Assembly: GCA_038043045.1 (NCBI GenBank)
Contig: JBBTCX010000081.1
Location: 5,561-69,560 of the forward strand
Length of the DNA stretch: 64,000 nt
Direction: 5' to 3'
From: Planctomycetota bacterium
Lineage (GTDB): Bacteria > Planctomycetota > Phycisphaerae > UBA1845
Shown here: positions 1-52,285 of the stretch, one piece after another
Layout of the letters: every line of letters begins with the position of its first letter
Numbering within the stretch: the first letter of the stretch is position 1
Position numbers and translations under genes: made by a program
Notes under the pieces: generated by a model
Told to the model about the DNA's origin: nothing
Database searches by the model: none
The model's input: the letters and a program-made list of their open reading frames with translations, nothing else

Positions 1-1196
1 CTCTCTGGATTGACCTTTGATGGTTCTTCCGGAGTATCCTCTCCCTGGACCGGCCCAATCCCCTCGCGTACCGCCGGAGTCGGCAGGCTTTGAATCTCCG
101 ACTCACGAAGCCTGTACCCATCCGGAAATTTTCCAAAAGCGTAAACATTCACCAGGTGATTTCCGTATTGGCTGGCCACGAACAAGAGATAGTCAACATG
201 AAAATCTTCGTGCACATAATTCTTGAAATAGGGAAGCGATGTTGCATCCGTTGCGACACTCGAAGGCAACCCCAGCGCGCCGGGTGAATCGCCAGGCCCG
301 CCGAATCGCATTAAGGTCTGACCGTTCGGGTCAAACATTTGCACGATCTCCGTGGCCCCGTCCACGACATAGACGACTCCGTCCGGTCCGACACGAATGC
401 CACGCGGACGCCCAAATTGCCCGAGAAAATACCCCGGTGTTCCTTTCGCCCAGACCGATTCTCCAGTACGGGTCAACTTCTGGATTCTCCAATTGTGGGT
501 GTCGCTTACATAGAGAAATCCGTCGGGACTTACCGCCAGACTGCTTGGAATTCTCATCTGTCCGGGCTCGCCTCCCGGTCCACCAAACGTTCGCAGAACA
601 GTTCCGTTTGTTCGATCCAATACGACGATCTGGCACGTTTCATCGTTGTCGAGGACGAATAACTCATTCTCAAAAACGGCAACATCCACCGGTCGACAGG
701 GCGGAGGAACATCGAACGCGGTGACGTATTGATCCTCGGGTCCAAAAACCACGATTTGCTTGCGTTCCGAGTCGACCACGAACTTATAGTTGGCGGAATC
801 CATCGCCACATTCAACGGTTTGCGCAACCGCCCGGGCCCGCTTACCCCAAAAACGGAAAACGCTTGCTGGCGAAAATCCAACCGACACATGCTCAATCCC
901 TTGGTGTCGCAAACGTAGGCAACCCCGTCTCGAACAGCGATTCCGTAGGGTTTTTGTATTGCTCTCTTGGCGGCCGGTTCTTTTCCCAGAATGTAATCTT
1001 CAAACGTGCCTTTGCGAGGCTCAAGCTCGTCCGCTCCGCTTGCCCAAGTCAAAAACTGAATTCGAGGAGGTTCAGGCGGCGCCGGGAAAAAAAGAGCCGG
1101 CTGGTTGTTCCTGGCCGCACGCTGACAACCGAATGCGCCCAACGCCGTTACGGTACAGGCTACTATCAATGAGCAGAAGATTCGCACAGTTTTCAT
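1..1196 (-). CDS. NHL-repeat beta-propeller lipoprotein, partial (3' end runs off the left edge)
   Basis: Absent from the supplied ORF track because it has no stop codon inside the window. My manual reverse-strand translation from the ATG (rc of cat 1194-1196) gives MKTVRIFCSLIVACTVTALGAFGC, a signal peptide with a lipobox Cys. NHL-like units follow: YGIAVRDGVAYVCD, PLNVAMDSANYKFVVDS, PVDVAVFENELFVLDN, PSSLAVSPDGFLYVSDTHNWRIQK, PRGIRVGPDGVVYVVDGATEIVQMFD. The frame stays open to about position 3. Confidence 0.7.
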   Translation of the reverse strand, partial: MKTVRIFCSLIVACTVTALGAFGCQRAARNNQPALFFPAPPEPPRIQFLTWASGADELEPRKGTFEDYILGKEPAAKRAIQKPYGIAVRDGVAYVCDTKGLSMCRLDFRQQAFSVFGVSGPGRLRKPLNVAMDSANYKFVVDSERKQIVVFGPEDQYVTAFDVPPPCRPVDVAVFENELFVLDNDETCQIVVLDRTNGTVLRTFGGPGGEPGQMRIPSSLAVSPDGFLYVSDTHNWRIQKLTRTGESVWAKGTPGYFLGQFGRPRGIRVGPDGVVYVVDGATEIVQMFDPNGQTLMRFGGPGDSPGALGLPSSVATDATSLPYFKNYVHEDFHVDYLLFVASQYGNHLVNVYAFGKFPDGYRLRESEIQSLPTPAVREGIGPVQGEDTPEEPSKVNPE

Positions 1197-1382: not shown

Positions 1383-2834
1383 TCACTCCGAAGGCAACGT
1401 TTCAGAATAGGCGCCGATGTCCGATGCTAGGTCAACGTCCCATTGAAGAAGCTCTAATGCCGGCATCGGTGTTCCGGGGTGGCCAAAGCGAATGAGATGC
1501 AAAAACTCCCAAGGGTTCACTTGTGCCACGGTTCCGACATATTCTGGAGAAACATCGGTTCCGAAGTTCAAGCTCCGGCCGTCGAAGCCATGGCAAGAAC
1601 TGCACACCGTATCGAAAAGGAACTGGCCGAATTGTAGATCGCCGAAGAACGCTCCGTCCGCGGAAATATAGCTATTTGTATCCAAGACTCCTTCCCGCGT
1701 CCATTTGACGACGTCCCAGAGGTCTCCTTCAGTCATTCCGTATGCACTCATGGCGTGCCCGTTGGGCTGTTGCGTCGGATTGCTTTGGAGCAAATCGAAG
1801 ATTTCTTGGGCAGTCTTCTCCGTATCGAAAACTCCGCGGATCCCCGTGGCGTGCGACCCGGAACCGTATCGGCCGTCCAAACCTTTGTAGTCCCAACCAT
1901 GGCATTCTTTGCAGCGGAAGGTGATCGCCCCCGCGCGCGGGCCATCGAGCGGATACAAGGGATGATTTCCGCTGGGGGCCTGGCCTCCGATGACGGTCCA
2001 CCACTGATCAAAAATCTGCCCACCTCGCACCACGTCTGCTCGTACGTAATTCGCCGGCAACACGGCTGTCGGACCTACCATCGCGGCGACGAAATCGGCC
2101 AAGTCAGAAAGTGACACGGCGTCGTCGCGGGTGAGATCGACATAGGCACACGCTTCCTCGCTCATAGTTCCATCCAAGAGGAAGCACCGTTGCATCACGG
2201 CAAAGTCATTTAAATCGGCATCCCCATCGCCATCGGCGTCCCCGGGCAGGGCATAGTTGATCGTCGAGTGGGTCGAATAGAAACGGTCGCCGACGAAAAA
2301 CTCGGCGTTGTTGATTGCATTGCCGGACACAAAAAAAGTGATGGAACTTGCGTCGGTTTCCGGTGCTTGCCAACGCAAGTGATAGTCATAAGAACCGCCG
2401 TTGTTGCCCCATTCCGCGACGGAGTCGATGACTCCCGTCTCCGTGTGCATCATGTACTTGGAATTGCTTCCGAACGCACCAAAATCCGTATGGATCGGGT
2501 CTACAACGATGAGTTGCCCGGCGTGAGCGTTACGGCCTTCGGCGCTGATCTGAAAACCCGCGCCTGCCTGTTCGGGATCGCCAATGCGCACAATCAAATC
2601 ATAGAATGCGCCACCCCGATAGCGTTGTGGAACTCCCAAGAGCTCAACTTGCCCGGGGCCTTCGTTGAAGACGTGACACGCCGAACAGTTTCGGCCTTCA
2701 CCCGCCGGTCCCCCGGAATAACCCCCGTCCAGACCAAAACGCGAGGCAAAAAGTGCCGGGGCAAGCAACCCCAAGCTCGCCCCGGCACACAGGATAATCT
2801 TCACCGCTTGCTTGCGCATCATTCCCCTCCTCAA
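1383..2834 (-). CDS. Secreted tri-haem c-type cytochrome with internal dockerin-like EF-hand module
   Basis: 483-aa ORF. N-terminal signal peptide (KIILCAGASLGLLAPALFA). Three CXXCH motifs (CSACH, CKECH, CSSCH). Double Ca-loop module DADGDGDADLNDF...DLTRDDAVSLSDLADF at about nt 2073-2249. Confidence 0.8.
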   Translation of the reverse strand: MRRGMMRKQAVKIILCAGASLGLLAPALFASRFGLDGGYSGGPAGEGRNCSACHVFNEGPGQVELLGVPQRYRGGAFYDLIVRIGDPEQAGAGFQISAEGRNAHAGQLIVVDPIHTDFGAFGSNSKYMMHTETGVIDSVAEWGNNGGSYDYHLRWQAPETDASSITFFVSGNAINNAEFFVGDRFYSTHSTINYALPGDADGDGDADLNDFAVMQRCFLLDGTMSEEACAYVDLTRDDAVSLSDLADFVAAMVGPTAVLPANYVRADVVRGGQIFDQWWTVIGGQAPSGNHPLYPLDGPRAGAITFRCKECHGWDYKGLDGRYGSGSHATGIRGVFDTEKTAQEIFDLLQSNPTQQPNGHAMSAYGMTEGDLWDVVKWTREGVLDTNSYISADGAFFGDLQFGQFLFDTVCSSCHGFDGRSLNFGTDVSPEYVGTVAQVNPWEFLHLIRFGHPGTPMPALELLQWDVDLASDIGAYSETLPSE

Positions 2835-2878
2835 GCGCGACGGCCATTGGCGCTGGATTCATGTACCGTGCATTCGCA

Positions 2879-5656
2879 CTACGGGGCCGGGGAATACCGA
2901 TACGCGGCGTTGGCCACGGGGTTGTTCGTGATCCCTTTGTACGCGATTTGCAACAGCCCGATCGCATAACCCGTGTTCTTGACTCCTAAGTCGCCGCTGT
3001 TGTCCACATACTCCCAGTTCCAAATGGCATCTTCGACCGTCGCGAGTTCGCTGGCGGAGACACTGTTGTTGCAAGTTCCACCACCCGGACAATCAAAAGG
3101 CGCGGTTCCGGTGCAAACGAGCCCGTTTCTCGAACCACCCGCACAGATCTTAGTTGCCCAATAGGGATTGACCCCAGCACCTGTGATAGGATCGAGCAGT
3201 CGAAACGCGCCTGCGGCGTTGAGCGCCAACTCAAGCAAATCCAATAGTCCGCGCGTTTCGTCTTGGATACCTTCCGTAAGAAGGTCGCCATCATAGTTTC
3301 CATTGGCCGTGATGTTGATGGCCGTTGCACCTGGGTGGCAGGCCGCCGAAGCACAGGTGTTGGCAACGTTTTCAAACCCAGTCGCATGGTCTTTCAGGCG
3401 GAAGGTGTGCCCTCCGACTTTGCCCACTTCCGGACCGGAAGATGGTCCCATCGCCATGTGGCAAGTCGTGCAACCGATTCCCGCGTTGGTGGTATGGTTG
3501 GAGTTCGAAAGCTCGTAGGCCGTACCGTCGAAACTGGTGACGCCATTCACGCCTTCGAGCATCACTCCACCTGAGAGATAGTGAATAGTTGTGACACCCG
3601 GCGGGTTGGGAATTGGAGGTTGTCTTCTACCGTTGTGGCAAGAAACGCAAGTCGCGCCCGGTCCCGCGTCCGTGATGATCTGCCCGGAAGGAAGGGTTAC
3701 CTCATCATAGATCCTGAGCATCGATTCATCTTGCGATCCTCCGTGCGTGTTGTGGCACACCAAGCAGTCCACAACCCGAAGGTCTCCGCGCTGTGATGCC
3801 GCCGCTACGCCATTGGAGAAGTCAATGTAGCCAAATCCGGAGTGGCACTGCCTGCAAGCACTCCGGTTCGACAACGACCAATCATAATGGATGAACGGAT
3901 CGGCCTGTGTGTCCGCATGTCCCGCGATGCTCCATTGCTCCACGATATCTGTGTGGCATTCGCCACATAGGGTCGGGTCCATCGCGGTCAGTCGTTTCAT
4001 CGCCGGCGGATTGGGTGACGTTTGAGCAAGCAGGTGGTCACCTCCCGCACGGTAGAGTTCTCTTCGCATATAGTTCACCAGCGGAGCGCATTGCGCGTTG
4101 GTTTGACAAACGGAGTTGTGGAACGGGCCACCTTGGCAAATCCCACCGGCGCAAAGCCCACTTTCCGTGCTTTGGTGCGGATCATGGCAGGTGGCGCAGC
4201 GAACATTGCCGTTATCCAAATGGAGAGCGAGATCACTTTGCGGATCCAAGTCTTCCGCTGCAACGCCCCACGGATGTGAATTCTCATCGGTACCTGGTCC
4301 GATCCAGGCGCTTCCGGCAATCTTGCCCGCTGAGTGACAGGACTGGCACAGGTTTTCTTGTCCCGCCGAGGTCAGCATTCCGCCGGGCGCGCCGTCTAGA
4401 CCATGGCATCGTCCGCACCGGTTGGCAATGTCGAGAATATGCGGGGCATTGACTCCGGGGTGTTCGGCGACCACTCGGTCGTCATCGAGAAAGTCGTTGA
4501 CGGTTCCGGCACCGAAGTTTGCGACCGCTATCTGGAGGTCTTTGATGTTTAGGGATCGATCGTGGTTGAAATCCAAGCTTTTGCGATAGTCGCCGGCGCG
4601 CATGGCGGTGACGATTTCAGCGGGATTGTCTGGAAAAACCGGATGAGGTCTGTTCTTCGACATTCGAGCGCCACGATCGTCGGCTTCCGTGCCGGGACCT
4701 TCCCCTCCAGATCCCGGCGCGTCAACCGAAGTTGTTGCGACAGACGAACCGGTTGTACAAAGCAGGCTAAACACTTCCACGGCACTGTTGTTCGTGTCGG
4801 CCACGAACAAGCGCCCTGCACTATTTATCATGACATCGCATGGCACTCTTACTTGGCCCGTGGCCGCGCCAAAGTTGACCAGCGGCTCGTGGTTGGTCCC
4901 CAATTCCCGTCCCGTTGCGCTGAACACCCGCACTGTTCCCATGAGCGCGTCGGATATGTAAATGTTGCTGCACGCATCCACAGCCACACCTTCGCTTCGG
5001 GCAAACCAAGCGATTTCGCCAAACGCGGAATAGAGAAGTCGATACCCGAACTTGAAGAGCACGGTACCGTTGGGGTCGAATACTTGCACCCTAAAGTTGT
5101 CGGCGTCCGTGACGATCACGTGGTGGAGGGCGGAATCTATAGCGATGGCTTGGGGCGAGATGTACTGGCCTAGACCGGGCCCTCCCATGCCCCATGAGCG
5201 TACCAGCGTCCAACTGGGTGGGGCTGTCTCACGAAATACCAGGACCCGATTCGCGCCGGCATCCACGACGTACAACTCCAGTGCGACGGAATCAAAGGCC
5301 AGACCGTTCGGTGCGGTCATGGTTAAAGGCGACGGGTTCACCGTTCCCGCCGAAACCAAGGCGGAACTGTAAACACCAACAGCCCCGTCGTCCCGGGATA
5401 GAAAGATTCGCCCATCCGAATGGGTCGCAATCCCGATCGGTCGCCCTGCCACAGTCACGGTGCTGACAAATGCACCAGTCGCGTCGAACTGGACGACTTG
5501 GTTGGTGGGAGGATCAGTGACATAAACTCCTCCTCCTGTTGCGGGCGCCAATCGCGCCGGATACTGCAAATTCGTGGCGATCGTCGCTACATGGTCTACT
5601 TCAGATGTTTGCCCAAGCGTAGCGGAAACCAACAGCAACACACATGCGGTTGTCAT
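2879..5656 (-). CDS. NHL-repeat beta-propeller fused to a multihaem cytochrome c (8 CXXCH + 1 CX4CH)
   Basis: 925-aa ORF with signal peptide MTTACVLLLVSATLGQTSE. The N-terminal ~330 aa carry NHL-like repeats (PARLAPATGGGVYVTD, PIGIATHSDGRIFLS, PNGLAFDSVALELYVVDAGANRVLVF, PQAIAIDSALHHVIVTDADNFRVQVFD, SEGVAVDACSNIYISD, PCDVMINSAGRLFVADTNNSAVEVF). The C-terminal part has CGRCH, CQSCH, CATCH, CGECH, CRQCH, CLVCH, CVSCH, CTTCH and CASAACH. Confidence 0.85.
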   Translation of the reverse strand: MTTACVLLLVSATLGQTSEVDHVATIATNLQYPARLAPATGGGVYVTDPPTNQVVQFDATGAFVSTVTVAGRPIGIATHSDGRIFLSRDDGAVGVYSSALVSAGTVNPSPLTMTAPNGLAFDSVALELYVVDAGANRVLVFRETAPPSWTLVRSWGMGGPGLGQYISPQAIAIDSALHHVIVTDADNFRVQVFDPNGTVLFKFGYRLLYSAFGEIAWFARSEGVAVDACSNIYISDALMGTVRVFSATGRELGTNHEPLVNFGAATGQVRVPCDVMINSAGRLFVADTNNSAVEVFSLLCTTGSSVATTSVDAPGSGGEGPGTEADDRGARMSKNRPHPVFPDNPAEIVTAMRAGDYRKSLDFNHDRSLNIKDLQIAVANFGAGTVNDFLDDDRVVAEHPGVNAPHILDIANRCGRCHGLDGAPGGMLTSAGQENLCQSCHSAGKIAGSAWIGPGTDENSHPWGVAAEDLDPQSDLALHLDNGNVRCATCHDPHQSTESGLCAGGICQGGPFHNSVCQTNAQCAPLVNYMRRELYRAGGDHLLAQTSPNPPAMKRLTAMDPTLCGECHTDIVEQWSIAGHADTQADPFIHYDWSLSNRSACRQCHSGFGYIDFSNGVAAASQRGDLRVVDCLVCHNTHGGSQDESMLRIYDEVTLPSGQIITDAGPGATCVSCHNGRRQPPIPNPPGVTTIHYLSGGVMLEGVNGVTSFDGTAYELSNSNHTTNAGIGCTTCHMAMGPSSGPEVGKVGGHTFRLKDHATGFENVANTCASAACHPGATAINITANGNYDGDLLTEGIQDETRGLLDLLELALNAAGAFRLLDPITGAGVNPYWATKICAGGSRNGLVCTGTAPFDCPGGGTCNNSVSASELATVEDAIWNWEYVDNSGDLGVKNTGYAIGLLQIAYKGITNNPVANAAYRYSPAP

Positions 5657-5875
5657 TTCTCGTTCTCCTCTTTCAGAGCCCTCAAGTCGCTCAAATTCAT
5701 CGAGTTCGAGCTAAGATCTCCTGAACTGAAGCCCGAACTTCTCTCTAGAGGATTATCATAGCAAACGGCGTACCACGATCTGTAGTGACGGGGATCGCGT
5801 ATGCCCATCTGCAACGCGACAATCGGGCGGCGAACCATATTGAGTCCTCTATTTGATGCATGGATGGGTCTTAAT

Positions 5876-6733
5876 CTACGGAAAGAAAAAGCTGCGGTAG
5901 AATTGAAAAGACTCGAAATCCATCAAGTCGACATCCGAATCTAGATCGAAATCAAAGATTCGGCAATCCTGGCCGGCAATAGTTCCTGGTCCAGCAAAAC
6001 AGCTGGTGAATGCGCGAAAGTCAACGGGATCAACGTCTCTGTCTAGGTCGGAATCTCCAGGAACGGCCAAATCGACCGTTAGGGTTGGCTTCGATTGGGG
6101 TTCAGAATCAACCGCATCGATAAAAACTTGATTAAGCAACTCGAACGTAGCTGGATTTACTTGGCATCGAAACGCCACCCGGAAGATTTTTTGGCCTAAC
6201 GTGTCGTTCACAACTCTACTTGCGTCAAACGTCCGATAAGTTGGAGATTGAAACGGTGCGATTAGGGTACTGCCGATCAGTTTCGCGGGTTCTTTATTAA
6301 AATCAGTTGGATTCTCAAGGAGATCCGCAGGGTAGGAATAAACGTGGAAGTCCGTATCGGCAGCCGGAAACCGAGGTGCTCCACGTAAGAGAACGGTCCA
6401 TTTGGCTGTGATAGGTAGAGAGGTCGGGATCGTCGCCAAGTTGTATTCAAAGACGACGCGATGCTCGACGTTGACGGAATCGGAACCTCGATTGAGTGTG
6501 ATAGTACCCTCATAACTAGATTGATTGAAGGACCAATCCCAGTCGTCGGCAACACCATCGAAAGATCCGTAGTTTCCGCCGTCAGCTAACGTCCCATCTG
6601 CTTGGGGTGAAACGGTAATCGCGCCGGCAATCTTGAGGTTTGCGACGTTGCCGATGGCAATGGCCACGCAAGTGAACGCAAGCTTGGCTCGAAGCCCGAT
6701 TGCGGTTGATTTTTCGAATGATCGCGAACTCAC
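5876..6733 (-). CDS. Secreted protein of unknown function with C-terminal dockerin-like module
   Basis: 285-aa ORF with a hydrophobic N-terminus (LAFTCVAIAIGNVANL). C-terminus reads DSDLDRDVDPVDFRAFTSCFAGPG...CRIFDFDLDSDVDLMDFESFQ (two EF-hand-like loops around a C..GPG..C linker). Confidence 0.7.
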   Translation of the reverse strand: MSSRSFEKSTAIGLRAKLAFTCVAIAIGNVANLKIAGAITVSPQADGTLADGGNYGSFDGVADDWDWSFNQSSYEGTITLNRGSDSVNVEHRVVFEYNLATIPTSLPITAKWTVLLRGAPRFPAADTDFHVYSYPADLLENPTDFNKEPAKLIGSTLIAPFQSPTYRTFDASRVVNDTLGQKIFRVAFRCQVNPATFELLNQVFIDAVDSEPQSKPTLTVDLAVPGDSDLDRDVDPVDFRAFTSCFAGPGTIAGQDCRIFDFDLDSDVDLMDFESFQFYRSFFFP

Positions 6734-6923: not shown

Positions 6924-7823
6924 ATGGGATTATTCAGAGCGTCATCCTTTGGAGGGGATGGCATTTTCCTGCCGAGGCGGTGGTGCGGACGATTACACAA
7001 CGACCGCGCCATTTCACGCACTTTCGGTTTGGCGGGATCGCGTGTTCGCTTGGGCAGCCTGTTTGGTGCAAATCCATTAGGCGTTGGGATTCTGTTGGTC
7101 TTGTTTCTTGGACTCCCGATCGGGAGTCTTTTAGCGTGGACCTCTTCAAGTGCTCAGTCCAACGGCCGATGGCTGGGCCATGGGCCGGGAGACATGAATC
7201 ATCCGGTCTTTGTGGTCCCGACCGCAGCGGTGCGGGTGCCTTCGGACTGGCCATTGGACGCAAATGGGGCCATTACATGTCTGACTTGCCACACTCGTAT
7301 ACCAGGGCGGGACGAAACCGCACGAATTGAGTTGCGAGGCTTTGACGAAGGCGAAGTGGGCGGTAACCCGGTGAGTTTTTGCGCGGTTTGCCATCAGGTT
7401 GATGGATTTCGCTCGGCATCAGGGACGCACTGGTTGGCCAACGCCAAAGCGCATATTCATGTTTCGTCTGATGAGTCTCAAGGTTGGGGTGGTCGATTGG
7501 ATGACGAGTCGCGACGGTGTTTGGGGTGCCACGATGGGGTTGGCGCCGGCGAAACAAGCTACGAAACGGGGCACAACCAACATAACGGCGCGTTCGGTGG
7601 TGACGGGCGAAACCACCCGGTTGGGATCGCGTACCCACGCGGAGGGAAGGATCGAAACGGAATCAGGTACCACATACCGGCGACACTTCCAAAGTCCGTT
7701 CGCCTTCCCGGTGGGACGGTAGGATGCGTCTCTTGTCACGACCTTTACTCGGCGGAACCGATGTACCTCAGTGTTCGCATCGAGGGGTCGGCCCTCTGTT
7801 TCACATGCCATGACATGAATTGA
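6924..7823 (+). CDS. Pentahaem c-type cytochrome (paired-CXXCH type); start uncertain
   Basis: 299-aa ORF with CLTCH, CAVCH, CLGCH, CVSCH, CFTCH. A hydrophobic segment GVGILLVLFLGLPIGSLLAW precedes the haem region, so the true start may lie downstream of 6924. It shares the NHPVGIAYP motif with the tetrahaem gene at 10745. Confidence 0.8.
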   Translation: MGLFRASSFGGDGIFLPRRWCGRLHNDRAISRTFGLAGSRVRLGSLFGANPLGVGILLVLFLGLPIGSLLAWTSSSAQSNGRWLGHGPGDMNHPVFVVPTAAVRVPSDWPLDANGAITCLTCHTRIPGRDETARIELRGFDEGEVGGNPVSFCAVCHQVDGFRSASGTHWLANAKAHIHVSSDESQGWGGRLDDESRRCLGCHDGVGAGETSYETGHNQHNGAFGGDGRNHPVGIAYPRGGKDRNGIRYHIPATLPKSVRLPGGTVGCVSCHDLYSAEPMYLSVRIEGSALCFTCHDMN

Positions 7824-7827
7824 ATGG

Positions 7828-8058
7828 TCAGGGAGCTTGCAAGGGTCTGACCCCGGCAAAAACGATGTCGAGAGCGGCGTTGACCACCCCGCGGACCCCG
7901 GTCTCGAAAGCGTCCACGACGACATTTTGGGCATCGACGATGACATTTCGAAACTCCGGGCGGCAGCCGCCGATCGCCGTTACCATTGATATGCACACCG
8001 CAGCCACAGTCGCTCCGCCAAGACCTCTGCTTCGACTCCCACGAATTTTTCTTTTCAC
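7828..8058 (-). CDS. Possible small lipoprotein (76 aa), convergent with the pentahaem gene
   Basis: GTG start (rc of cac 8056-8058) preceded by GGAG with a 7-nt spacer on the minus strand (GATAGTGGAGTTTTTTTGTG). N-terminus MKRKIRGSRSRGLGGATVAAVCISMVTAIGGC resembles a lipoprotein signal. I recognise no similarity to a known family. Confidence 0.35.
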   Translation of the reverse strand: MKRKIRGSRSRGLGGATVAAVCISMVTAIGGCRPEFRNVIVDAQNVVVDAFETGVRGVVNAALDIVFAGVRPLQAP

Positions 8059-8290
8059 AAAAAAACTCCACTATCCGGGCAATTATCTTCAACGGCACGC
8101 ATTTTGCCCAGGTCCTTCCAGGCCAGGAAGTGGCGGTGAGCAAATTGAATGCCACTGCTTGACGATTTTCTACCTATGGGTTGTAGTTTACCAAGGCGTC
8201 TTTGGAAACGGAACCGCGCCCGGCTCGCTCGATGCGTATGTAACTTTTCCAAAGAGTGCGCAGGTGGTCTTTTTACAGGCGGACAGAATC

Positions 8291-9496
8291 GTGGTTGGAT
8301 GCAGATTTGACGTTTTGGTTTCCTCGGTGGTCTTTTTTGGTGTCTTATGGTGCTGGCCAGCGGCAGCGATCGCTCAGCATTCGAGTCATCCCACGCACCC
8401 GCCCATGTCGGACACGCTGCTTTTTCTGCGGATAGAGCGGGATGCCGCGACAGGAATTCCAGCAAAAGATGTCCCCTTGGTCTTGACGTCAGCTGAAGCG
8501 GAAAAGGAGTTGAATCAGAGCGTTGAATGGGCCGAGGGTGAGCCGCCTTTGCGGTTGATCCGGTATTTGCCGCATGGCACACTTGAACAAACCGCGTTGC
8601 CCGCCGACGGAGAATCCGCTCGTCCGGCGGTAGAGTTGGTGATCGAGGGTCCGACCCAATCCGTTCGACGTTGGCTTTTGGCCGATGATCCGGCACGAAA
8701 TCGATTAACGAGTTATATCGGGACTTGGCGGTTCATATCGACTGGAGATCGCCAGGGTCGGGACGATTTGTTACGCCAGTTTGAAACGGAATTTGAACGT
8801 GAACCGCAATTGCTGGTCAGCCGGCCCAGCGGTGACCCCGAGCATCGACTACCCTTACGAATCGACACGAGGCAGGCGATTGAGGAATTGGGCAGCACCG
8901 TTCGCGTGCTGCGGTTTTTCCCTGATTATTCGTTGGATCGAGAAAAGTCCGGTGGGGGAGAGGGCCCGGTGAACCGGTCTCAACAGCGCCGCAATCCCGC
9001 AGTGTTGGTCGAGATTGCCAAGGATGGTCGCACGGAGCAGCGATGGGTGTTTGCCAAGTTCCCGAGGTTTGGACCCAAAGAGGGGGATCAACTCCCAATT
9101 CGTATCGTACTGGATTGTCCCGTCGAAAGTTCCGGAACCACGCCGGATTTTGTTCTAGTTTCCATGGCCGGGAAAGAGTTGGAGCGCTGGGCTCGATATT
9201 CGGGGAGAACCACAAGTTCTCCACTGGCGCTGCGGGAATCCGTGGAAATTTCCGGGTCGCAATATACGTTTCAAGTCGTGAATTTTTTAGCGGCCGCTCT
9301 TTTGAGTGAAGATTATAAGAGCGCGGAATCGGGGACGGGTGTTTCCGCATTGCAGGTGGAAGTACCCGATCGATCCGGGGGTTCGTCACGGATTTGGCTT
9401 GCTCTGGGGGAATCGAAGACCACCGTTGGTTCAGCCGGGGCGATTTCCCTTCTTTTTCATGCAAAATCCGCGGATAGCCGTGGAGGGCATCCGTGA
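8291..9496 (+). CDS. Secreted protein of unknown function inside the cytochrome cluster
   Basis: Track ORF 7820..9496 trimmed to the in-frame GTG at 8291. This gives (M)VGCRFDVLVSSVVFFGVLWCWPAAAIAQ, a plausible signal peptide. The stop overlaps the next gene start in GTGA (9493-9496). Confidence 0.6.
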   Translation: MVGCRFDVLVSSVVFFGVLWCWPAAAIAQHSSHPTHPPMSDTLLFLRIERDAATGIPAKDVPLVLTSAEAEKELNQSVEWAEGEPPLRLIRYLPHGTLEQTALPADGESARPAVELVIEGPTQSVRRWLLADDPARNRLTSYIGTWRFISTGDRQGRDDLLRQFETEFEREPQLLVSRPSGDPEHRLPLRIDTRQAIEELGSTVRVLRFFPDYSLDREKSGGGEGPVNRSQQRRNPAVLVEIAKDGRTEQRWVFAKFPRFGPKEGDQLPIRIVLDCPVESSGTTPDFVLVSMAGKELERWARYSGRTTSSPLALRESVEISGSQYTFQVVNFLAAALLSEDYKSAESGTGVSALQVEVPDRSGGSSRIWLALGESKTTVGSAGAISLLFHAKSADSRGGHP

Positions 9497-10503
9497 ACCT
9501 TTGGGTGAAGTTCGGGATTTCGTGTTTGAGCATTTTGTTGACCGAGGGTTGGGCTGTCGCACAGACTCCGGGTAGATATGCGGGGAATTGTACGGACTCG
9601 GCCTGTCACAAGGGGTTGACGGAACTCAAAGTCGTTCATGCGCCGATTACGCAGGGGGCTTGTGATGCCTGCCATGAATCGATCGCCGGCGAAGAACACA
9701 AGTTTCGCCTCGCAAGAACTGGAGGCGAGCTCTGCACGGAATGTCATGAAGATGTCACCAAGGACCTGCCGTTTGTCCATGGTCCGGTAGCGGTCGGGGC
9801 ATGCACGGCCTGTCATCAAGCACATTCGTCCAATCTTGCCCATCTTCTAGTCCGTGAAGAAAAAAACTTGTGTGTGGAATGCCATTCAGCCATTCAAGAG
9901 CGCTTGGGAACCGGCAGCCATGTTCATCGTCCGGTAAGCGAAGGATGTCTCGGTTGCCACCAGGGACACGGGGCCAAGAACAAGATGATGCTCTCCACAG
10001 AAGCCCCAAGGCTTTGTTTGGACTGTCACGGCGAGATTGAGACGTTGCTATCTGACAATCCGCATCAACACGGGCCGGTGGGGAAAGGGGAATGCGCCGC
10101 TTGTCACGATCCGCACGGGAGCGTGAATGCGGCGTTGCTCGCTCAGGATTACCCGCCCAAGTTCTATGCTCCATTTGTAGAAAAGGCCTATTCGCTTTGT
10201 TTCGAGTGCCATGAGTCCGAGGCTTTCACGGAAAAACTGACCGATAAAGCCACCGGATTCCGAGACGGAACGAGAAATCTGCACTATTTGCACGTGAATC
10301 AGAGCGTCAAGGGGCGAACCTGCCGTGCCTGTCACGACCCCCATGCCACAAAAAATTCCAAACAAATCCTGGAAAGCGTTCCGTTTGGCACTTGGAAAAT
10401 CCCTTTGAACTTCAAGGAAACCGAGATTGGGGGTTCTTGTGCACCGGGTTGCCACAAACCCGCGACGTACAAACGGACAGAGACAGCGGGCGTATCACCC
10501 TAA
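9493..10503 (+). CDS. Multihaem c-type cytochrome (9 CXXCH + CX4CH + CX3CH)
   Basis: 336-aa ORF with signal peptide ISCLSILLTEGWAVAQ. Motifs: CDACH, CTECH, CTACH, CVECH, CLGCH, CLDCH, CAACH, CFECH, CRACH, plus CTDSACH and CAPGCH. Confidence 0.9.
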   Translation: MNLWVKFGISCLSILLTEGWAVAQTPGRYAGNCTDSACHKGLTELKVVHAPITQGACDACHESIAGEEHKFRLARTGGELCTECHEDVTKDLPFVHGPVAVGACTACHQAHSSNLAHLLVREEKNLCVECHSAIQERLGTGSHVHRPVSEGCLGCHQGHGAKNKMMLSTEAPRLCLDCHGEIETLLSDNPHQHGPVGKGECAACHDPHGSVNAALLAQDYPPKFYAPFVEKAYSLCFECHESEAFTEKLTDKATGFRDGTRNLHYLHVNQSVKGRTCRACHDPHATKNSKQILESVPFGTWKIPLNFKETEIGGSCAPGCHKPATYKRTETAGVSP

Positions 10504-10744
10504 GTCACGCTTACGCCGTCCCTTTTGAACGCAACATGAGCCGACCAGCACCACAAACAATCCTCGGCGCTCTTTGAAACTACCCTCAAGGACTCGAAAA
10601 CCGCTGGATCGCAAGTGGCACGCAACATGCCGAGTGATTCCCGGATAGCGCGTTCGCGGTATTGGTCGTGAACGGACGTGGAAAAGGGCGAGGGCGGCGG
10701 CGTATGATTCTATGTCGGGCCCGGAAGCAAGAAGGAGGATTAAC

Positions 10745-11389
10745 ATGAAGCGGTTAAGTTGGCTACTTCCAGCGGCGGGGATGTCCATCTTGGCCGTGGT
10801 AGCTTTGGGGCAGATTGTACCGGGTGATCCAGCCAGCTACCCGTCGGTCAACGTAGTGAATACGCCTCACAATTTGAATAACTATCCGGGAGTAAATATT
10901 CCGGGCAACCAGGTGTGCCTACCGTGTCACACCCCACACAATGCTTTGTTGTCCGGTGATAAGAATGTGCTGTGGAACCACGCGGAGACGACACAGACGT
11001 TCGTGATGTACAAGAGTACGGCCGGTCAGCCGGAAGGACCCAGCAAATTGTGCCTGAGCTGCCATGACGGCGTGACCGCCATCGACAATTACGGCGGAAA
11101 CGGCGGAACGGGAATCGTCATCACCGGGCGGGCAGCGCTTGGAACGGATCTTTCGAACGACCACCCGATCGGTGTGGCCTACCCCACGGCTTTGCCGACA
11201 GAATACCGCGACCCGAGTTCGTTTGCCCCAGGAATCGGCGGCGGACCGGGAGTGCGCCTGGTGGAGATCAACAGCGTGGAGCGAGTGGAATGCACCTCGT
11301 GCCACAACGTGCACAACAATGGATTGGGCAATTTCCTTCGAGTACCGATTCAAGAAAGCTATCTTTGTCTGCAATGCCATAACAAATGA
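10745..11389 (+). CDS. Tetrahaem c-type cytochrome (paired-CXXCH type)
   Basis: Start moved to ATG 10745, which is preceded by AAGGAGG. Signal peptide MKRLSWLLPAAGMSILAVVALG. Motifs CLPCH, CLSCH, CTSCH, CLQCH. NDHPIGVAYP is paralogous to the motif in the 6924 gene. Confidence 0.85.
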   Translation: MKRLSWLLPAAGMSILAVVALGQIVPGDPASYPSVNVVNTPHNLNNYPGVNIPGNQVCLPCHTPHNALLSGDKNVLWNHAETTQTFVMYKSTAGQPEGPSKLCLSCHDGVTAIDNYGGNGGTGIVITGRAALGTDLSNDHPIGVAYPTALPTEYRDPSSFAPGIGGGPGVRLVEINSVERVECTSCHNVHNNGLGNFLRVPIQESYLCLQCHNK

Positions 11390-11564: not shown

Positions 11565-13466
11565 ATGACCGTGACTGAAACCCCTCAAGCGCTCTGGCGA
11601 AATGGACTGACGATGGTCGGCGGTCTATTGGCCGCCTTGATCACGCTCTTCATCATCAGTTTTCTCACCATCGATCTCACATCCGAACACCCCAGTCCGT
11701 ACATTGGGTTATTCACGTACCTTGTTTTTCCGGGTGTGCTGGTCCTTGCCATCTGGATGATTCTTGTTGGGTTATTTCTGGCTCGGCGACGCTTGCGTCG
11801 ATTGCGCGGAAGCGTGGGGCAGGTTCAGTATTATCCTCGGTTCGACTTGAACGACGTTCGTCATCGTCGGGTGTTGGCAATTGGTGGAGTGGCCATGACC
11901 TTGACTCTTCCGATTATTGGCCTGCTCAGTTATGAAGGCTATCATTACACTGATTCCAACGAATTCTGTGGCTCGGTCTGTCACACGGTGATGGAACCTC
12001 AGTTCGCTGCTTACCAACAGTCGCCTCATGCCCATGTTCATTGCGCGGAATGCCACATCGGTTCCGGGGCGAGCTGGTACGTGAAATCGAAACTTTCGGG
12101 CATTCGGCAAGTATTTGCGGTCGTTTTGGGTACGTTTCCGCGCCCGATTCCTCCGGCGATCCAAGAGCTTCGCCCCGCCACCGAAACGTGTCAGCAGTGC
12201 CACTGGCCTTCCAAGTTCTACGGCGATCAACTGGTAACGATCGATCACTACGGATCGGATGAAAAAAATACAGCGGGCCGTATTCGCATGTTGCTGAAAA
12301 CCGGCGGAAGCGATCCCTCGACCGGTCCGCCGTCCGGAATTCATTGGCACATGGCGTTGGGTTTCACAGTGGAATATGTCGCGGTGGACGATCACTTGCA
12401 GGAGATTCCGTGGGTGAAGACGACGGACCACGCCACCAACCAATCGCGCGTTTTCCGGTCCGATGGTTTGATGGAAAAGGACCCGCCGCCGAAAGGAACG
12501 CGTCGAACCGTGGATTGCATGGACTGCCACAATCGTCCGACGCACATTTTCCGATCTCCTGAAAAAGCCGCCGACAGCGCCCTTCACGTTCATTCCGCGC
12601 TGCAAACTCTGCCTTTCGCGAAACGAGAACTCGTCGCCGCACTGGCTCGGTCGTATCCCACCAAGAACGACGGAAATCGTGAGATCAAGGAAGCCCTCGA
12701 ATCGTTCTATCGAGACCAATACACACAAGTTTGGAACGATCGGCGTCGCGACGTGGAGCAGCTCGTCGACGCGGCATTGGAAATCTATCGGGCCACGGCG
12801 TTCCCGGAGATGAACGTGTCGTGGCGTACCTACCCGAACAACATCGGTCATAAGATTTTCCCAGGCTGCTTCCGATGTCATGATGATAAACATGTGGATG
12901 ATTCCGGCAGATCGATGAACCGTGATTGCGGCGCTTGCCACGAATTCCTTGTTCCATCCAACGGGGATTTGGGCTCGAACACCGTTCATGTGGGTGGGTT
13001 CGTGCATCCCTTTTCCCTGGTGGGTCCGCATGCCGCTTTGCGGTGTGACCAGTGTCACACGGGTGGCGTCGCACCGAATCCGACCTGTGCCGGGTGCCAT
13101 GTCTCGGTCGCGGATTTTCGCGCGGGCACGCTGCCGGGATGGAGCAAGACGAAACTGCCCGCTGATTCCATGCGCGACATCGCCGATTGCGAGGCGTGTC
13201 ACGATCTGGCACGACAAATGACACTGGAAACCCTGGATGAGAAATGCATGGATTGTCACTCCGACGAGGAAGATAAATTTCGAGGCTTGTTGGCGTCCTG
13301 GAAGCGGGAAGTCGATGCACTACTGGTCCCCTTGGAACAATCGGCGCCGGGAGATAAGCAACTGATCGGCTCGTTGCAAAAAGCAGGACCGCTGCACAAC
13401 ATCGAGGCCACGCGCGAAATACTCAAAACGCTACCGAGCGCGGCGTCGGAGGTCAGCCCAAAATGA
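11565..13466 (+). CDS. Membrane-anchored NapC/NirT-type multihaem cytochrome (9 CXXCH + CX3CH)
   Basis: 633-aa ORF. Two N-terminal hydrophobic helices (GGLLAALITLFIISFLTIDL, VFPGVLVLAIWMILVGLFLA) and a third (AIGGVAMTLTLPIIGLL). The NapC/NirT-like first motif context is EFCGSVCHTVM...HCAECHIG. Further motifs: CQQCH, CMDCH, CFRCH, CGACH, CDQCH, CAGCH, CEACH, CMDCH. Confidence 0.85.
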   Translation: MTVTETPQALWRNGLTMVGGLLAALITLFIISFLTIDLTSEHPSPYIGLFTYLVFPGVLVLAIWMILVGLFLARRRLRRLRGSVGQVQYYPRFDLNDVRHRRVLAIGGVAMTLTLPIIGLLSYEGYHYTDSNEFCGSVCHTVMEPQFAAYQQSPHAHVHCAECHIGSGASWYVKSKLSGIRQVFAVVLGTFPRPIPPAIQELRPATETCQQCHWPSKFYGDQLVTIDHYGSDEKNTAGRIRMLLKTGGSDPSTGPPSGIHWHMALGFTVEYVAVDDHLQEIPWVKTTDHATNQSRVFRSDGLMEKDPPPKGTRRTVDCMDCHNRPTHIFRSPEKAADSALHVHSALQTLPFAKRELVAALARSYPTKNDGNREIKEALESFYRDQYTQVWNDRRRDVEQLVDAALEIYRATAFPEMNVSWRTYPNNIGHKIFPGCFRCHDDKHVDDSGRSMNRDCGACHEFLVPSNGDLGSNTVHVGGFVHPFSLVGPHAALRCDQCHTGGVAPNPTCAGCHVSVADFRAGTLPGWSKTKLPADSMRDIADCEACHDLARQMTLETLDEKCMDCHSDEEDKFRGLLASWKREVDALLVPLEQSAPGDKQLIGSLQKAGPLHNIEATREILKTLPSAASEVSPK

Positions 13467-13502: not shown

Positions 13503-15413
13503 ATGGTGTTTACCGCGACAAGTCTGATCGTCTGGGCGATCGTGGGACAAGGGTCGCCGCCAGTTACAAGGAGTTGCACCGACTGCCATGATCCACAGCA
13601 CGTTGCGACCTTGCCGTTCGGTTCGTCTACCGGAAAGCTTGCGGATTCCGTTCATTCCCGACTTGATTGCGTAGATTGCCACGCCGCGATTTCCATGGAG
13701 AAGGTCGACGTTTCAGCGAAAAAACCGCATGGGTCTAAGGTCTCGTCGGTCCAGTGCGGGGAATGTCACGACGCCGAGGCGCAGGTGTATCGACAACACG
13801 GTCGCCTGGCCGTCGGTTCGAATCCCGACATCCCCGGTTGTGCGAATTGCCACGGTACCCACGATATTCTTGCGTCGTCGCATCGAGAGTCTCGCGTCCA
13901 TCCGGTCAATCTCGCGGCGACTTGCGAGGCCTGCCACACCAACGTGGACATCATCAAGAACCACGACTTACTCAAGGAAGAACCCCTCAAGCTGTATGAG
14001 AGCAGCGCTCACGGTCGCGCCACTCACCGAGGACTGCAAATGGCGGCGACCTGCGGTGACTGCCATTCCGCCGGCGGCCCAAAAGGCGAACGAACCGCGC
14101 ACCGAATTCTCAGCGCGGCGGACCGGGATTCCACCATTTATCACTTCAATATCCCGGATACGTGCGGCAAGTGTCATCGAGGCATCGCGGAGGATTATTG
14201 GGAGGGAATTCACGGGCAGTTGGCCAAACGCGGAGAGGTTGACGCCCCGACCTGTACACGATGTCACGGCGAACACGGCATCCTGCCCGCGTCCGATTTG
14301 CGTTCCCCGGTGAGTGCCGCGCGATTGGCGGAGGCGACCTGCGCTCCGTGCCACGAATCGGCACTGCTCAGCGAACGATACGGTGTACCGGCCGGACGGT
14401 TGAAATCCTACGTCGACTCTTATCACGGCCTGAAGCGCAAGGCGGGCAACGTTCTTGTGGCCAATTGCGCCTCGTGTCACGGGCAGCACCGCATTCTCCC
14501 CCATACCGATCCCCGATCGTCCATTCACCCCAACAACTTGCCGAATACGTGCGGAGATTGTCACCCCGGTATTTCGCGGGTGATGGCCACCGCGCCGATT
14601 CATGAAACCGCCACGGGAATCAAGGCCGGTTGGCCAAGGTTTGTCGCCCTGTTTTATATTGTGCTCATTGTCGTCACGATCGGGGCGATGGTCGTTCACA
14701 ACGTTGGGCATTGGTGGTCGCGAGTTCGGGTGTTGGCCAGGGTCGAATCTGTTGCTCGATTATCGCCCGGCGAAACGGCGCAACATTGGGTGTTGATGAT
14801 TTCGTTTATCGTGCTGGTGATCTCCGGATTCTCGCTTCGATTTTCGGAATCCTGGTGGGTAGACCTTCTCTTTGGCTGGGGCGGCGGCGAAGGCTTTGTG
14901 ATTCGCGGGACGATTCATCGCGTGTCAGCAGTCGTGTTTATGATTTGGGCGGCGTGGCATCTTCTATATTTGTGCACGGCGCGAGGTCGGCAGTGGTTCA
15001 AGGACATGATCGCCACGCGGAACGACGTGACGCATATCAAACAAAACGCGCTCTACTTTCTTGGGCGGCGCAACCAAGAGCCGCGCTTCGGTCGTTTCAG
15101 TTACATGGAAAAATGTGAATATTGGGCCTTGCTGTGGGGTGCGGCCATCATGACCGCTACCGGAGTTCTCCTTTGGTTTGATAATTACTTCGTCCAGCAA
15201 TGGCATCTTCCCAAAGGCGTGCTCGACGTGGCCTTGGTCATCCATTACTACGAAGCGTGGCTCGCATCATTAGCGATCTTCGTGTGGCACATCTACGGCA
15301 CGTTGTTCAGTCCGTCGGTTTATCCAATGAACCCCGCGTGGTGGAAGGGCCGCATGCCGCTTTCGATGTATACCCATGAGCATCCCGAGGGTCCCATTCC
15401 TCCGGATGTTTAA
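13503..15413 (+). CDS. 11-haem c-type cytochrome fused to a C-terminal FdnI/HydC-like membrane cytochrome b domain
   Basis: 636-aa ORF with 11 CXXCH (CTDCH, CVDCH, CGECH, CANCH, CEACH, CGDCH, CGKCH, CTRCH, CAPCH, CASCH, CGDCH). About 5 predicted TM helices follow, with conserved His (TAQHWVLMISFIVLVISGF, IHRVSAVVFMIWAAWHLLYL, VIHYYEAWLASLAIFVWHIYG). Confidence 0.85.
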   Translation: MVFTATSLIVWAIVGQGSPPVTRSCTDCHDPQHVATLPFGSSTGKLADSVHSRLDCVDCHAAISMEKVDVSAKKPHGSKVSSVQCGECHDAEAQVYRQHGRLAVGSNPDIPGCANCHGTHDILASSHRESRVHPVNLAATCEACHTNVDIIKNHDLLKEEPLKLYESSAHGRATHRGLQMAATCGDCHSAGGPKGERTAHRILSAADRDSTIYHFNIPDTCGKCHRGIAEDYWEGIHGQLAKRGEVDAPTCTRCHGEHGILPASDLRSPVSAARLAEATCAPCHESALLSERYGVPAGRLKSYVDSYHGLKRKAGNVLVANCASCHGQHRILPHTDPRSSIHPNNLPNTCGDCHPGISRVMATAPIHETATGIKAGWPRFVALFYIVLIVVTIGAMVVHNVGHWWSRVRVLARVESVARLSPGETAQHWVLMISFIVLVISGFSLRFSESWWVDLLFGWGGGEGFVIRGTIHRVSAVVFMIWAAWHLLYLCTARGRQWFKDMIATRNDVTHIKQNALYFLGRRNQEPRFGRFSYMEKCEYWALLWGAAIMTATGVLLWFDNYFVQQWHLPKGVLDVALVIHYYEAWLASLAIFVWHIYGTLFSPSVYPMNPAWWKGRMPLSMYTHEHPEGPIPPDV

Positions 15414-51155: not shown

Positions 51156-52285
51156 GGCACGTGTACTCCGGAATAGTGGCGTCATTGCTCGCGATCGTCA
51201 CCGTTTCGCCTTGTTTGGCCGGCGGGTTTGATGTCGCCATCGATTCGGCCACGCATCGGGCAGTGAAGCTCTACGGCCTCGGCGCGGGCGCGCAAGCCGG
51301 CTATGGAACGGGCACCATGGTCTCCAGCCAAGGGCATGTGCTCACGGTCGATTCGCTTTTGATCGACGCCAAGCGAGTTCGCGTGGTGTTGCCCGATGGC
51401 ACTCGCCATGAGGCCGAGGTCCTGTATCGTGACTTCTCCCGCCAGTTGGCGCTGCTACAAGTTCGTCGACCGACTTCGAAGAGCCTGGTGGAACAATTCG
51501 CACTGGAGCCGTTGGGGCCTTTTCCGTTTTTTGACATGAAAGACGGCTTCGCCCATGCGACCAAGGACCTGCATTCGTCGGCCAACGCGGAACGGTTGAA
51601 CGAGCTTCGTCAAGGGGACTGGGTGTTGGCCGCGGGGAACGCTTTCAAAGTGGCCGAAGGACCGGAAATGGTCTCGGTGGCTCACGGGGTCTTTTCGACA
51701 CGGACTCGGTTGGACGCCAGGCGCCGGGCGAGAGATTTTCCCTATCAAGGTGATGTTCTGGTCATCGACGCCATCACGAGCAATCCCGGCGCTGCTGGCG
51801 GTCCCGTGGTGGATATTCACGGCCGATTGATCGGCATCATTGGCCGCGAGGTGATTTCGAATCTGACGCACACCCATTTCAACTACGCCGTTCCGTTGGA
51901 CGTACTCCAGGCGTTTTACGCGGATGCGATGAAGTTCAAGGAGCCGACCTCACCCGAGGAATTGGTTTCGACCGTCAAAACATTCGAGAAGAGTTCGAGT
52001 GCCACGGCGGCGGCACTTCAAGATGTCGACTTTGGTTTTCGCGTGACCCGGGCCGGCTATACCACGGTCCTCCCGTTCGTGGAAAAAGTACGGCTGGGTT
52101 CCTCCGCCGCGCGCGGCGGTTTGAAGGAGGACGATTTGATTCTTACGGTCAACGGCAAGAACGTCGCGGATGTGATCGAATGCGAAAAACGGATCGCCGA
52201 TTCTCCGCCGGGCAAACCGCTGGACCTCGTCGTCCGCCGCGATCGTGCAATCCTGCCCATCCGTGTGGAGTCGAAACAGCCATGA
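51152..52285 (+). CDS. HtrA-like pseudoprotease with PDZ domain (all three triad positions substituted)
   Basis: ATG 51152 overlaps the upstream stop (ATGA). Trypsin-fold pattern YGTGTMVSSQGHVLTVDSLL (His position is Ser), RQLALLQV (Asp position is Gln), SNPGAAGGPVVD (Ser position is Ala). PDZ-like VEKVRLGSSAARGGLKEDDLILTVNG. Confidence 0.8.
   Translation: MRHVYSGIVASLLAIVTVSPCLAGGFDVAIDSATHRAVKLYGLGAGAQAGYGTGTMVSSQGHVLTVDSLLIDAKRVRVVLPDGTRHEAEVLYRDFSRQLALLQVRRPTSKSLVEQFALEPLGPFPFFDMKDGFAHATKDLHSSANAERLNELRQGDWVLAAGNAFKVAEGPEMVSVAHGVFSTRTRLDARRRARDFPYQGDVLVIDAITSNPGAAGGPVVDIHGRLIGIIGREVISNLTHTHFNYAVPLDVLQAFYADAMKFKEPTSPEELVSTVKTFEKSSSATAAALQDVDFGFRVTRAGYTTVLPFVEKVRLGSSAARGGLKEDDLILTVNGKNVADVIECEKRIADSPPGKPLDLVVRRDRAILPIRVESKQP

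Follow-up and report, generated by a model that had tools for sequence, protein, structure and literature searches.

A fusion of an NHL beta-propeller to a probable nonahaem cytochrome within a putative extracellular electron-transfer gene cluster of Phycisphaerae

The window analyzed in this work is a stretch of 64,000 nucleotides from a Planctomycetota bacterium of the class Phycisphaerae (assembly GCA_038043045.1, contig JBBTCX010000081.1, positions 5,561 to 69,560 of the forward strand). Near its left end, the minus strand carries a gene (2879..5656, stop codon included; hereafter gene c) that consists of one uninterrupted open reading frame and encodes a protein of 925 amino acids (protein c). 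It starts at the first ATG that follows a stop codon, ~8 nt 3′ of a Shine-Dalgarno-like AGAGGAG. An identical protein is present in NCBI as [quoted passage not shown] where MAG stands for metagenome-assembled genome. From the N-terminus onward, protein c has a short signal peptide, an NHL propeller, a disordered linker, a module resembling an EF-hand or dockerin, and a multihaem domain. A preliminary description of the window had already read the gene as a single polypeptide that joins a propeller to a cytochrome, and the unbroken reading frame and the recurrence of the same fusion in ~90 homologues and 62 genomic loci bear this out.

The signal peptide comprises residues 1-16 (MTTACVLLLVSATLGQ; 5609..5656, minus strand, as are all features of gene c given below). 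It was delimited from the sequence, from the N-termini of 90 homologues, and from a helix at residues 2-13 in an AlphaFold2 (AF2) model; its C-terminal part has the family consensus ..GQ(T/S)S, and it is predicted to be cleaved. The next segment, residues 17-301 (4754..5608), is a six-bladed NHL beta-propeller. The six NHL-type repeats proposed in the preliminary description do score as such (Pfam PF01436, E 2.2e-15, 56.2 bits vs. a cut-off of 20), and a sequence search of the PDB with the propeller found the NHL domains of TRIM71, Thin, and TRIM2 (E ~1e-26). The AF2 model, built from an alignment of 90 sequences, has a mean predicted local distance difference test (pLDDT) of 84.4 and a predicted template modelling score (pTM) of 0.77. 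In this model residues 17-301 form ~24 strands with pLDDT of 95-98, and a Foldseek comparison of the segment with crystal structures of six-bladed NHL domains gave TRIM2 and Thin as the best matches (target-normalised template modelling scores of 0.80-0.84). Identity to the TRIM-type NHL structures is 22-26%. The N-terminal strand (residues 17-26) probably closes blade 6. In the 90 sequences, the invariant residues of the propeller are those of the canonical structural NHL motif, and no histidine is conserved in it. The propeller is conserved to the same degree as the haem domain.

As the earlier reading had it, a Gly/Ser/acidic linker follows, at residues 302-345 (4622..4753). This segment is of low complexity; residues 306-335 have pLDDT <50, and the linker sequence is not conserved in the family. 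It leads into a helical module at residues 346-392 (4481..4621) that resembles an EF-hand or half of a dockerin. Here the candidate calcium loop, 362-DFNHDRSLNIKD-373, matches the D-x-N-x-D...D pattern, the corresponding family consensus is LDLNRDxxVDxxDLExAV, and AF2 places helices at residues 346-354, 371-381, and 386-390. The family profile also has a weak match to cellulosomal (CipA) dockerins (E 0.005), and the Pfam scan of protein c gave no match to the Dockerin_1 model. The EF-hand-like segment that had been proposed at this position is thus upheld by the loop pattern, the conserved consensus, and the weak dockerin match. A second motif resembling a calcium loop, NYDGDLLTEGIQDE, occurs in the six-haem/C-terminal part of the protein.

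For the haem domain, CXXCH motifs were found at residues 414, 437, 487, 564, 601, 631, 670, and 729, and a CX4CH motif was found at residue 768. By chance, ~0.02 such motifs are expected in 925 residues with ~3% Cys and ~3% His. The domain had been described as an octahaem cytochrome; the eight CXXCH and one CX4CH motifs are present as described, but they make nine sites rather than eight, and if the CX4CH site is counted the protein is most likely a nonahaem cytochrome. The first three haems (C414, C437, and C487) lie in a head region defined by motif and alignment data (residues 400-496; 4169..4459). The other six belong to a module that extends through the C-terminal helices (residues 555-925; 2882..3994), which was delimited by NrfA profile matches and by homologues in other phyla. 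Haem motifs 1-3 and the histidines H406, H461, and H494 are invariant in 90 of 90 family members, and the remaining motifs are at least 90% conserved. Nine histidines outside the motifs (406, 461, 479, 494, 580, 638, 692, 721, and 750) are at least 90% conserved in the family, which amounts to one per haem; five of these nine are also kept across phyla. Based on this conservation, all nine haems are predicted to be bis-His ligated, and the haem domain would therefore be an electron wire rather than a catalytic site.

The haem domain has similarity to the pentahaem nitrite reductase NrfA. The family profile matched NrfA structures in the PDB with E 5e-13 and, in another search, E 5e-6. When E. 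coli NrfA was aligned to the hidden Markov model of the family, haems 3 (C487), 4 (C564), 8 (C729), and 9 (the CX4CH site) of protein c corresponded to NrfA haems 2, 3, 4, and 5, respectively. Relative to NrfA, protein c has three extra haems (5-7) between the counterparts of NrfA haems 3 and 4, and its N-terminal side is extended by two haems with paired CXXCH motifs. The C-terminal helices share the motif ..W.W(D/E)(Y/L)V..(E/D)NS.G..N.. with NrfA, and WNWEYVDNSGDLGVKN of protein c aligns with the helix-bundle motif of NrfA. Judging from these alignments, the haem domain is distantly related to NrfA. However, the catalytic CXXCK haem of NrfA, with its lysine ligand, is absent, and no CXXCK motif occurs anywhere in protein c. 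The active-site CH-V-E-Y-Y that follows haem 3 is replaced by CHTDIVEQW in the family, and neither Pfam Cytochrom_C552 nor NCBIfam NrfA matched the protein. The domain was not classed as an NrfA because it lacks CXXCK, and catalysis of the NrfA type was given less weight because, in addition, the active-site motif is missing and nine histidines are conserved. MccA and the octahaem tetrathionate reductase family gave weak matches as well.

In the AF2 model of the whole protein, the haem domain is mostly made of loops and helices, with two long helices at the C-terminal end. The pTM of 0.77 for this two-domain protein hints at a defined arrangement between the predicted domains. A separate model of the haem domain from a 13-sequence alignment was poor (pLDDT 48.5) and was not used for a fold search. 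Two inserts with four cysteines each are located at residues 502-523 (nt ~4088-4153; CAGGICQGG..CQTNAQC) and residues 838-862 (nt ~3071-3145; CAGGSRNGLVCTGTAPFDCPGGGTC). Both are lineage-specific, being found in only a subset of the homologues, and are probably disulfide-stabilised surface loops.

The ~90 homologues, in which NHL propeller, linker, and haem domain follow one another as in protein c, were found in a collection of 5.8 billion proteins. With one genome scanned per species, a relative was encoded at 62 distinct loci. All of these come from MAGs of Phycisphaerae/Planctomycetota, except for two weak haem-only matches and one contig binned to a Patescibacteria MAG. The fusion is also present in complete MAG chromosomes, and some genomes have several paralogues; single MAGs (OFTM243 and bin37) hold three to six paralogues of the NHL-cytochrome family. 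Matches that cover residues 1-495 in full were limited to some 12 to 20 representatives of a library clustered at 50% identity, which indicates that the family is small and restricted to this clade. The flanks of the linker (PDNP) and the EF-hand module are conserved in the family. On this comparative evidence, the fusion is real and under selection.

The architecture of the family is modular. Across the 90 sequences there is little or no variation in the propeller, the EF-hand module, and haem motifs 1-3, and distant paralogues can be aligned over residues 1-496 only. The wire 3′ of this head is variable: it may have six further haems, six plus a domain of the OmcA/MtrC type, or arrays that bring the total to 15-34, so that family members have between 9 and 34 haems. 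In two long paralogues (P0052 and P0047), the domain after the six-haem module passes the OmcA/MtrC model TIGR03507 (285-290 bits vs. 209). The paralogues with 34 haem motifs, at loci L025 and L033, have a length of ~2070-2080 amino acids.

A search with the haem domain found the six-haem C-terminal module also in nonahaem proteins of other phyla. Matches with an organism name are few and belong to Chloroflexi, Bacteroidetes, Verrucomicrobia, and Deltaproteobacteria. In these proteins, a lipoprotein signal precedes the module in at least 16 of 50 cases, and PKD, Big_2, Ig, DUF11, or CarboxypepD_reg domains neighbor it or a sorting tail of the type IX secretion system (T9SS) stands behind it. 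By this comparison, the NHL propeller is an accessory domain in the Phycisphaerae members.

Gene c belongs to a cluster of two divergent groups, d-c-b-a on the minus strand (6733 down to <1) and e-f-g-h-i-j on the plus strand (6924 to 15413). Directly upstream of gene c, gene d (5876..6733) encodes a secreted protein of 285 amino acids that has a beta-rich domain and ends in a type I dockerin (dockerin profiles, E 1.6e-7 to 1.5e-4), for which the alignment shows two loop-helix repeats. Its assignment is also based on synteny: of 37 loci whose sequence extends at least 1.2 kb upstream, 18 have gene d immediately upstream of c on the same strand, and another group, of more distant loci, has it immediately downstream. 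In most loci the two genes are direct neighbors. On the other side of gene c, gene b (1383..2834, minus strand) encodes 483 amino acids and combines a choice-of-anchor V domain and a dockerin with two class I cytochrome c domains; CXXCH motifs number three in total. The choice-of-anchor V match (NF041895, E 3.8e-20) contains a CXXCH of its own, and the Pfam match to the dockerin (residues 197-246) is below the cut-off. Gene b is a second unusual fusion of a surface anchor and a cytochrome in this operon. A 14-bp GC-rich hairpin followed by a T-run is located at 2753..2788 (minus strand), within the signal-peptide coding region of gene b and just 3′ of the gene c stop codon; in a scan of positions 1000-7100 for promoters and terminators, counts were at chance level.

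Gene a (<1..1196, minus strand) starts 1683 bp downstream of the gene c stop codon and is cut by the window end. The full-length database copy has 403 amino acids, of which 398 are inside the window and the last five are outside. The stand-alone NHL lipoprotein that had been noted 1.7 kb downstream on the same strand is confirmed by a lipobox (..TALGAFGC, Cys24) and a Pfam NHL match (E 9.7e-17). Its relatives in 11 related loci have 58-72% identity, and among the matches listed in a database search (at least 120) all are at least 64% identical, with named organisms being Phycisphaerae, Planctomycetota, or an unclassified “bacterium.” In contrast, identity to the fused propeller of protein c is 27%, and a recent duplication of that propeller was rejected as the origin of protein a for this reason. 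Protein a is a distant relative of the fused propeller and belongs to a separate family that is much larger and more conserved.

The plus-strand genes encode further cytochromes. Genes e (6924..7823) and h (10712..11389) were identified by haem motifs and synteny as pentahaem and tetrahaem cytochromes, respectively; h is the most conserved member of the cluster (63-85% identity in the closer loci). BLASTP matches of both proteins to the three-haem head of protein c were weak and driven by the haem motifs, and no homology is claimed. Gene g (9493..10503) encodes an undecahaem cytochrome similar to MtrA/DmsE/GSU2203 (nine CXXCH, one CX3CH, and one CX4CH), with NCBIfam matches of E 4.9e-36 and 1.8e-29 that are both under the family cut-offs. 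Gene i (11565..13466) encodes a NapC/NirT/NrfH-like cytochrome with two transmembrane segments and 10 haem motifs (ImcH-like), and gene j (13503..15413) encodes an 11-haem cytochrome fused to an FdnI-type cytochrome b (CbcL-like); both were assigned by domain matches. We take the architecture of gene j to be that of Geobacter CbcL, and the architectures of i and j together parallel Geobacter ImcH and CbcL. Gene f (7820..9496) encodes a conserved protein of ~390 amino acids, the true start being probably near 8300, and no relative was found for it in Pfam, NCBIfam, or the PDB. Members of the gene f family have an N-terminal GHGxHPPM and a C-terminal GHP motif, most residues of which are invariant or nearly so. 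Gene f lies between e and g, in a place where one could expect a porin, and its end overlaps the start of g by 4 bp.

In many related loci, genes e, f, g, h, and a are found again with their order preserved. At one homologous locus in a Phycisphaerae MAG (L002, 4111..6989) and at a further one (L001), a sigma-54-dependent two-component system lies between the e-like and f-like genes. At L002 it consists of a HisKA/HATPase sensor and a Sigma54_activat regulator; it is absent from the window and is a candidate regulator of the cluster. Taken together, genes a, c, e, g, h, i, and j bring NHL propellers and multihaem cytochromes, including an MtrA-like one, together within 15 kb, and the cluster plausibly encodes a path by which electrons could travel from the quinol pool to the outside of the cell.

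Among known systems, the closest analogues of this cluster would be the DFE clusters of Desulfovibrio ferrophilus IS5 and the Uet clusters of Candidatus Tenderia electrophaga. The DFE clusters (DFE_0448-0451 and DFE_0461-0465) encode multihaem cytochromes and NHL-repeat propellers, have no recognised porin, and include a periplasmic cytochrome proposed to be MtrA-like (PMC5815863; PMC9769857). The propellers DFE_0451 and DFE_0463 are co-expressed with the outer-membrane cytochromes and have been proposed to stabilise the complex through protein-protein interactions, replacing a beta-barrel (PMC5815863; PMC9769857). By gene content, the window cluster is alike in having several multihaem cytochromes and NHL propellers, and no porin model matched in it. 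However, propeller and cytochromes are separate genes in D. ferrophilus, whereas propeller and nine-haem domain are covalently fused here, and the dockerin modules and partner protein d of the window have not been described there. In a survey of boreal lakes, Phycisphaerae MAGs were reported to carry genes for extracellular electron transfer (EET) of the DFE and CbcL types, which agrees with our annotation of the window cluster.

The Uet cluster, known from Ca. Tenderia electrophaga and Gallionella and proposed for electron uptake, comprises the undecahaem UetJ, the extracellular tetrahaem UetA, and the NHL propellers UetH and UetI. Undecahaem g, tetrahaem h, and NHL lipoprotein a of the window are similar in gene content. 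In contrast, the beta-barrel UetC, the peptidylprolyl isomerase (PPIase), the cupredoxin, and the three trihaem c7 proteins are items of Uet that were not found in the window cluster. The Tenderia preprint lists ALP54653.1 both as a pentahaem protein and as an NHL-domain protein, and this may be another, independent NHL-haem fusion. Two NHL proteins are also present in the largest multihaem locus of Geoalkalibacter ferrihydriticus. NHL propeller genes are thus recurrent neighbors of multihaem cytochromes in EET loci, where a role in stabilising the cytochrome complexes of the outer membrane has been proposed for them, and these systems are an independent precedent for the function suggested here for protein c.

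OmcA and MtrC, the cell-surface decahaem cytochromes of Shewanella, have the role proposed here for protein c, that of a terminal and surface-exposed haem wire, and the long paralogues pass TIGR03507. However, protein c lacks a lipobox and MtrC lacks a propeller. Protein c itself did not match TIGR03507 and scored 26.6 bits against PF22113 (cut-off 30), and its haem domain was not filed as OmcA/MtrC because the score is under the family cut-off. TRIM2, TRIM71, Thin, Brat, and the sensor domain of the bacterial PknD have the same six-bladed NHL fold, used as a platform for binding ligands or macromolecules. They differ in context (RNA or protein binding in eukaryotic cytoplasm), and none of them is joined to a redox domain.

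In the literature search, no published description was found of the fused NHL-haem architecture or of this Phycisphaerae family. The preliminary description had called the architecture unfamiliar, and this is right for the fusion, on which no paper was found. It is not right for the design as an isolated one, as NHL propellers adjoin multihaem cytochromes in the DFE, Uet, and Geoalkalibacter loci. Protein c is therefore not categorically new, since both of its parts and their genomic association are already known. What is undescribed is the fusion, its radiation within one clade (9 to 34 haems), the conserved head of propeller, EF-hand, and three haems, and the dockerin partner.

We infer that protein c is a secreted and probably surface-displayed multihaem cytochrome that would form the outer end of an extracellular electron-transfer pathway of Phycisphaerae, and give this reading a probability of roughly 55%. 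In this scheme, electrons from the quinol pool would leave through the inner-membrane cytochromes i (NapC/NrfH-like) and/or j (CbcL-like) and would cross the periplasm and the outer membrane through the MtrA/DmsE-like undecahaem protein g and the small cytochromes e and h. The nine-haem chain of protein c would then hand them on to an acceptor that is insoluble or macromolecular, for instance Fe(III)/Mn(IV) oxides or humic substances; the reverse direction, from a solid donor to the chain of c, may also be possible. The NHL propeller would act as a docking module, tying the wire to its redox partners or a surface scaffold, or to the substrate surface. Candidate docking sites are a partner cytochrome, NHL lipoprotein a, protein d, a cell-wall scaffold, and a mineral surface. 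The module resembling an EF-hand or dockerin and the adjoining dockerin protein d may provide calcium-dependent anchoring or assembly. The propeller is most simply read as a docking element: it is structurally nearest to binding platforms, the residues that never vary in it belong to the structural NHL motif, and it has neither a conserved histidine nor another obvious catalytic constellation. The suggestion of the preliminary description, that a propeller is tethered to a haem wire for docking in electron transfer, is plausible and fits all of this context. A surface location is favored over a periplasmic one because of the OmcA/MtrC-type extension of the long paralogues, the dockerin modules in b and d, and the two 4-Cys inserts in c. 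The lipoprotein signals, T9SS tails, and PKD/Ig/Big_2 domains that accompany the module in other phyla likewise suggest the cell surface. The cellular location, the direction of electron flow, the haem ligation, and the ligand of the propeller are all deduced here from sequence.

Several observations weigh against this assignment to the cell surface and to electron conduction. The signal peptide of protein c is short and has no charged N-region, and no export system was identified for the protein. The dockerin-like module has one loop-helix (residues 362-381) instead of the two tandem F-hand repeats of a type I dockerin, its profile match is weak, and no cohesin-like partner was identified for it. 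No porin model matched in the cluster, where gene f is the only candidate, and no outer-membrane porin is recognisable in it. Moreover, the bis-His assignment is drawn from conservation, and one of the conserved histidines could be catalytic as in NrfA. Protein c could instead be a periplasmic scaffold, whose propeller docks the nine-haem chain to the inner face of an outer-membrane complex, or to the NHL lipoprotein and small cytochromes, and which bridges the inner-membrane quinol oxidoreductases and the outer membrane. Such a location is consistent with a Sec-type signal that comes with no lipobox, T9SS tail, or identified export system; periplasm-spanning multihaem proteins are known, for example in the PCC3 system, and the cluster already has other candidates for outer components in the dockerin protein b and in h. 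However, the homologous haem modules of other phyla carry T9SS tails and surface-type domains, extracellular display is typical for dockerin-type modules, and the long paralogues end in a domain of the OmcA/MtrC family, which is extracellular in Shewanella. We consider a periplasmic location unlikely on balance.

Less probable still is that protein c is a redox enzyme. It would then have either a catalytic propeller that exchanges electrons with the haem chain, comparable to PAL, the SMP-30/gluconolactonase lactonases, quinohaemoprotein dehydrogenases, or the alpha subunit of hydrazine synthase, or an NrfA-derived domain that has kept a catalytic haem. In favor of an enzyme are the homology to NrfA over its haems 2-5 and C-terminal helices, the weak matches to MccA and the octahaem tetrathionate reductase family, a Foldseek match to PAL (3fvz, E 3e-15), annotations of homologues that include “SMP-30/gluconolactonase/LRE family,” and the equal conservation of propeller and haem domain. 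Nevertheless, the missing CXXCK, the nine conserved histidines that are candidate distal ligands, the replacement of CH-V-E-Y-Y by CHTDIVEQW, and the unmatched NrfA models in Pfam and NCBIfam argue against a catalytic haem. A catalytic propeller is opposed by its structural set of invariant residues and by the lack of a conserved histidine in it; the best structural matches are binding-type NHL domains, and the Pfam SGL match is under threshold (22.7 vs. 26.3 bits). As for an assembly or sequencing artefact that joined separate NHL and multihaem genes, the same clade does have a stand-alone NHL protein (gene a) and a stand-alone nonahaem homologue without NHL (P0127). This explanation, however, would have to account for an unbroken frame, for the same fusion in ~90 independent assemblies and 62 loci that include complete MAG chromosomes, and for the conserved PDNP flanks and EF-hand module. 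A frameshift or stop codon separating two genes had been named earlier as a concern; the comparative data speak against it, the artefact was rejected as refuted for practical purposes, and its probability is negligible.

The fusion may also serve as a “Rosetta stone” for the EET clusters of unrelated bacteria, although we advance this tentatively and think it somewhat doubtful. The NHL propellers of the DFE, Uet, and Geobacterales loci would bind multihaem cytochromes directly and, in place of the missing beta-barrel porin, would organise the outer complex. Residues 1-496, which every family member has kept and which contain the propeller, the EF-hand module, and haems 1-3, would be a new kind of calcium-dependent head for docking and electron entry, onto which Phycisphaerae have grafted interchangeable wires of 6 to ~30 further haems. 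The role of NHL propellers in EET has been a loose end since the work on D. ferrophilus, and a covalent fusion of propeller and cytochrome provides a tractable object for testing it, as both are in one polypeptide. Phycisphaerae occur widely in sediments, groundwater, sludge, and lakes; they have hardly been cultivated and are not regarded as electroactive. If the proposed function is true, surface cytochromes with 9 to 34 haems and a complete gene set from quinol to the surface would make them candidate respirers of iron, manganese, or humic substances.

Elsewhere in the window, a second redox cluster was found at 58372..62974 (minus strand). It encodes a multihaem cytochrome of 615 amino acids with an MtrC/MtrF II-IV-like match, a chaperone of the NarJ/TorD type, and a 4Fe-4S subunit with four clusters. 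This gene content suggests a molybdoenzyme complex, which may run toward or beyond the window end. Two giant genes at 16401..28637 (minus strand) encode a 2158-amino-acid protein with SpvB/TcdB/RHS-repeat and FG-GAP features that resembles toxin-complex proteins and a 1915-amino-acid protein with a Laminin_G_3 domain. Three tandem HtrA-like genes (Trypsin_2 and PDZ) are located at 49257..53556 (plus strand), with a gene for an NPCBM-domain protein ahead of them at 47887..49326. Finally, two adjoining and slightly overlapping genes for beta-eliminating lyases (472 and 498 amino acids) are present at 55452..58330 (minus strand).

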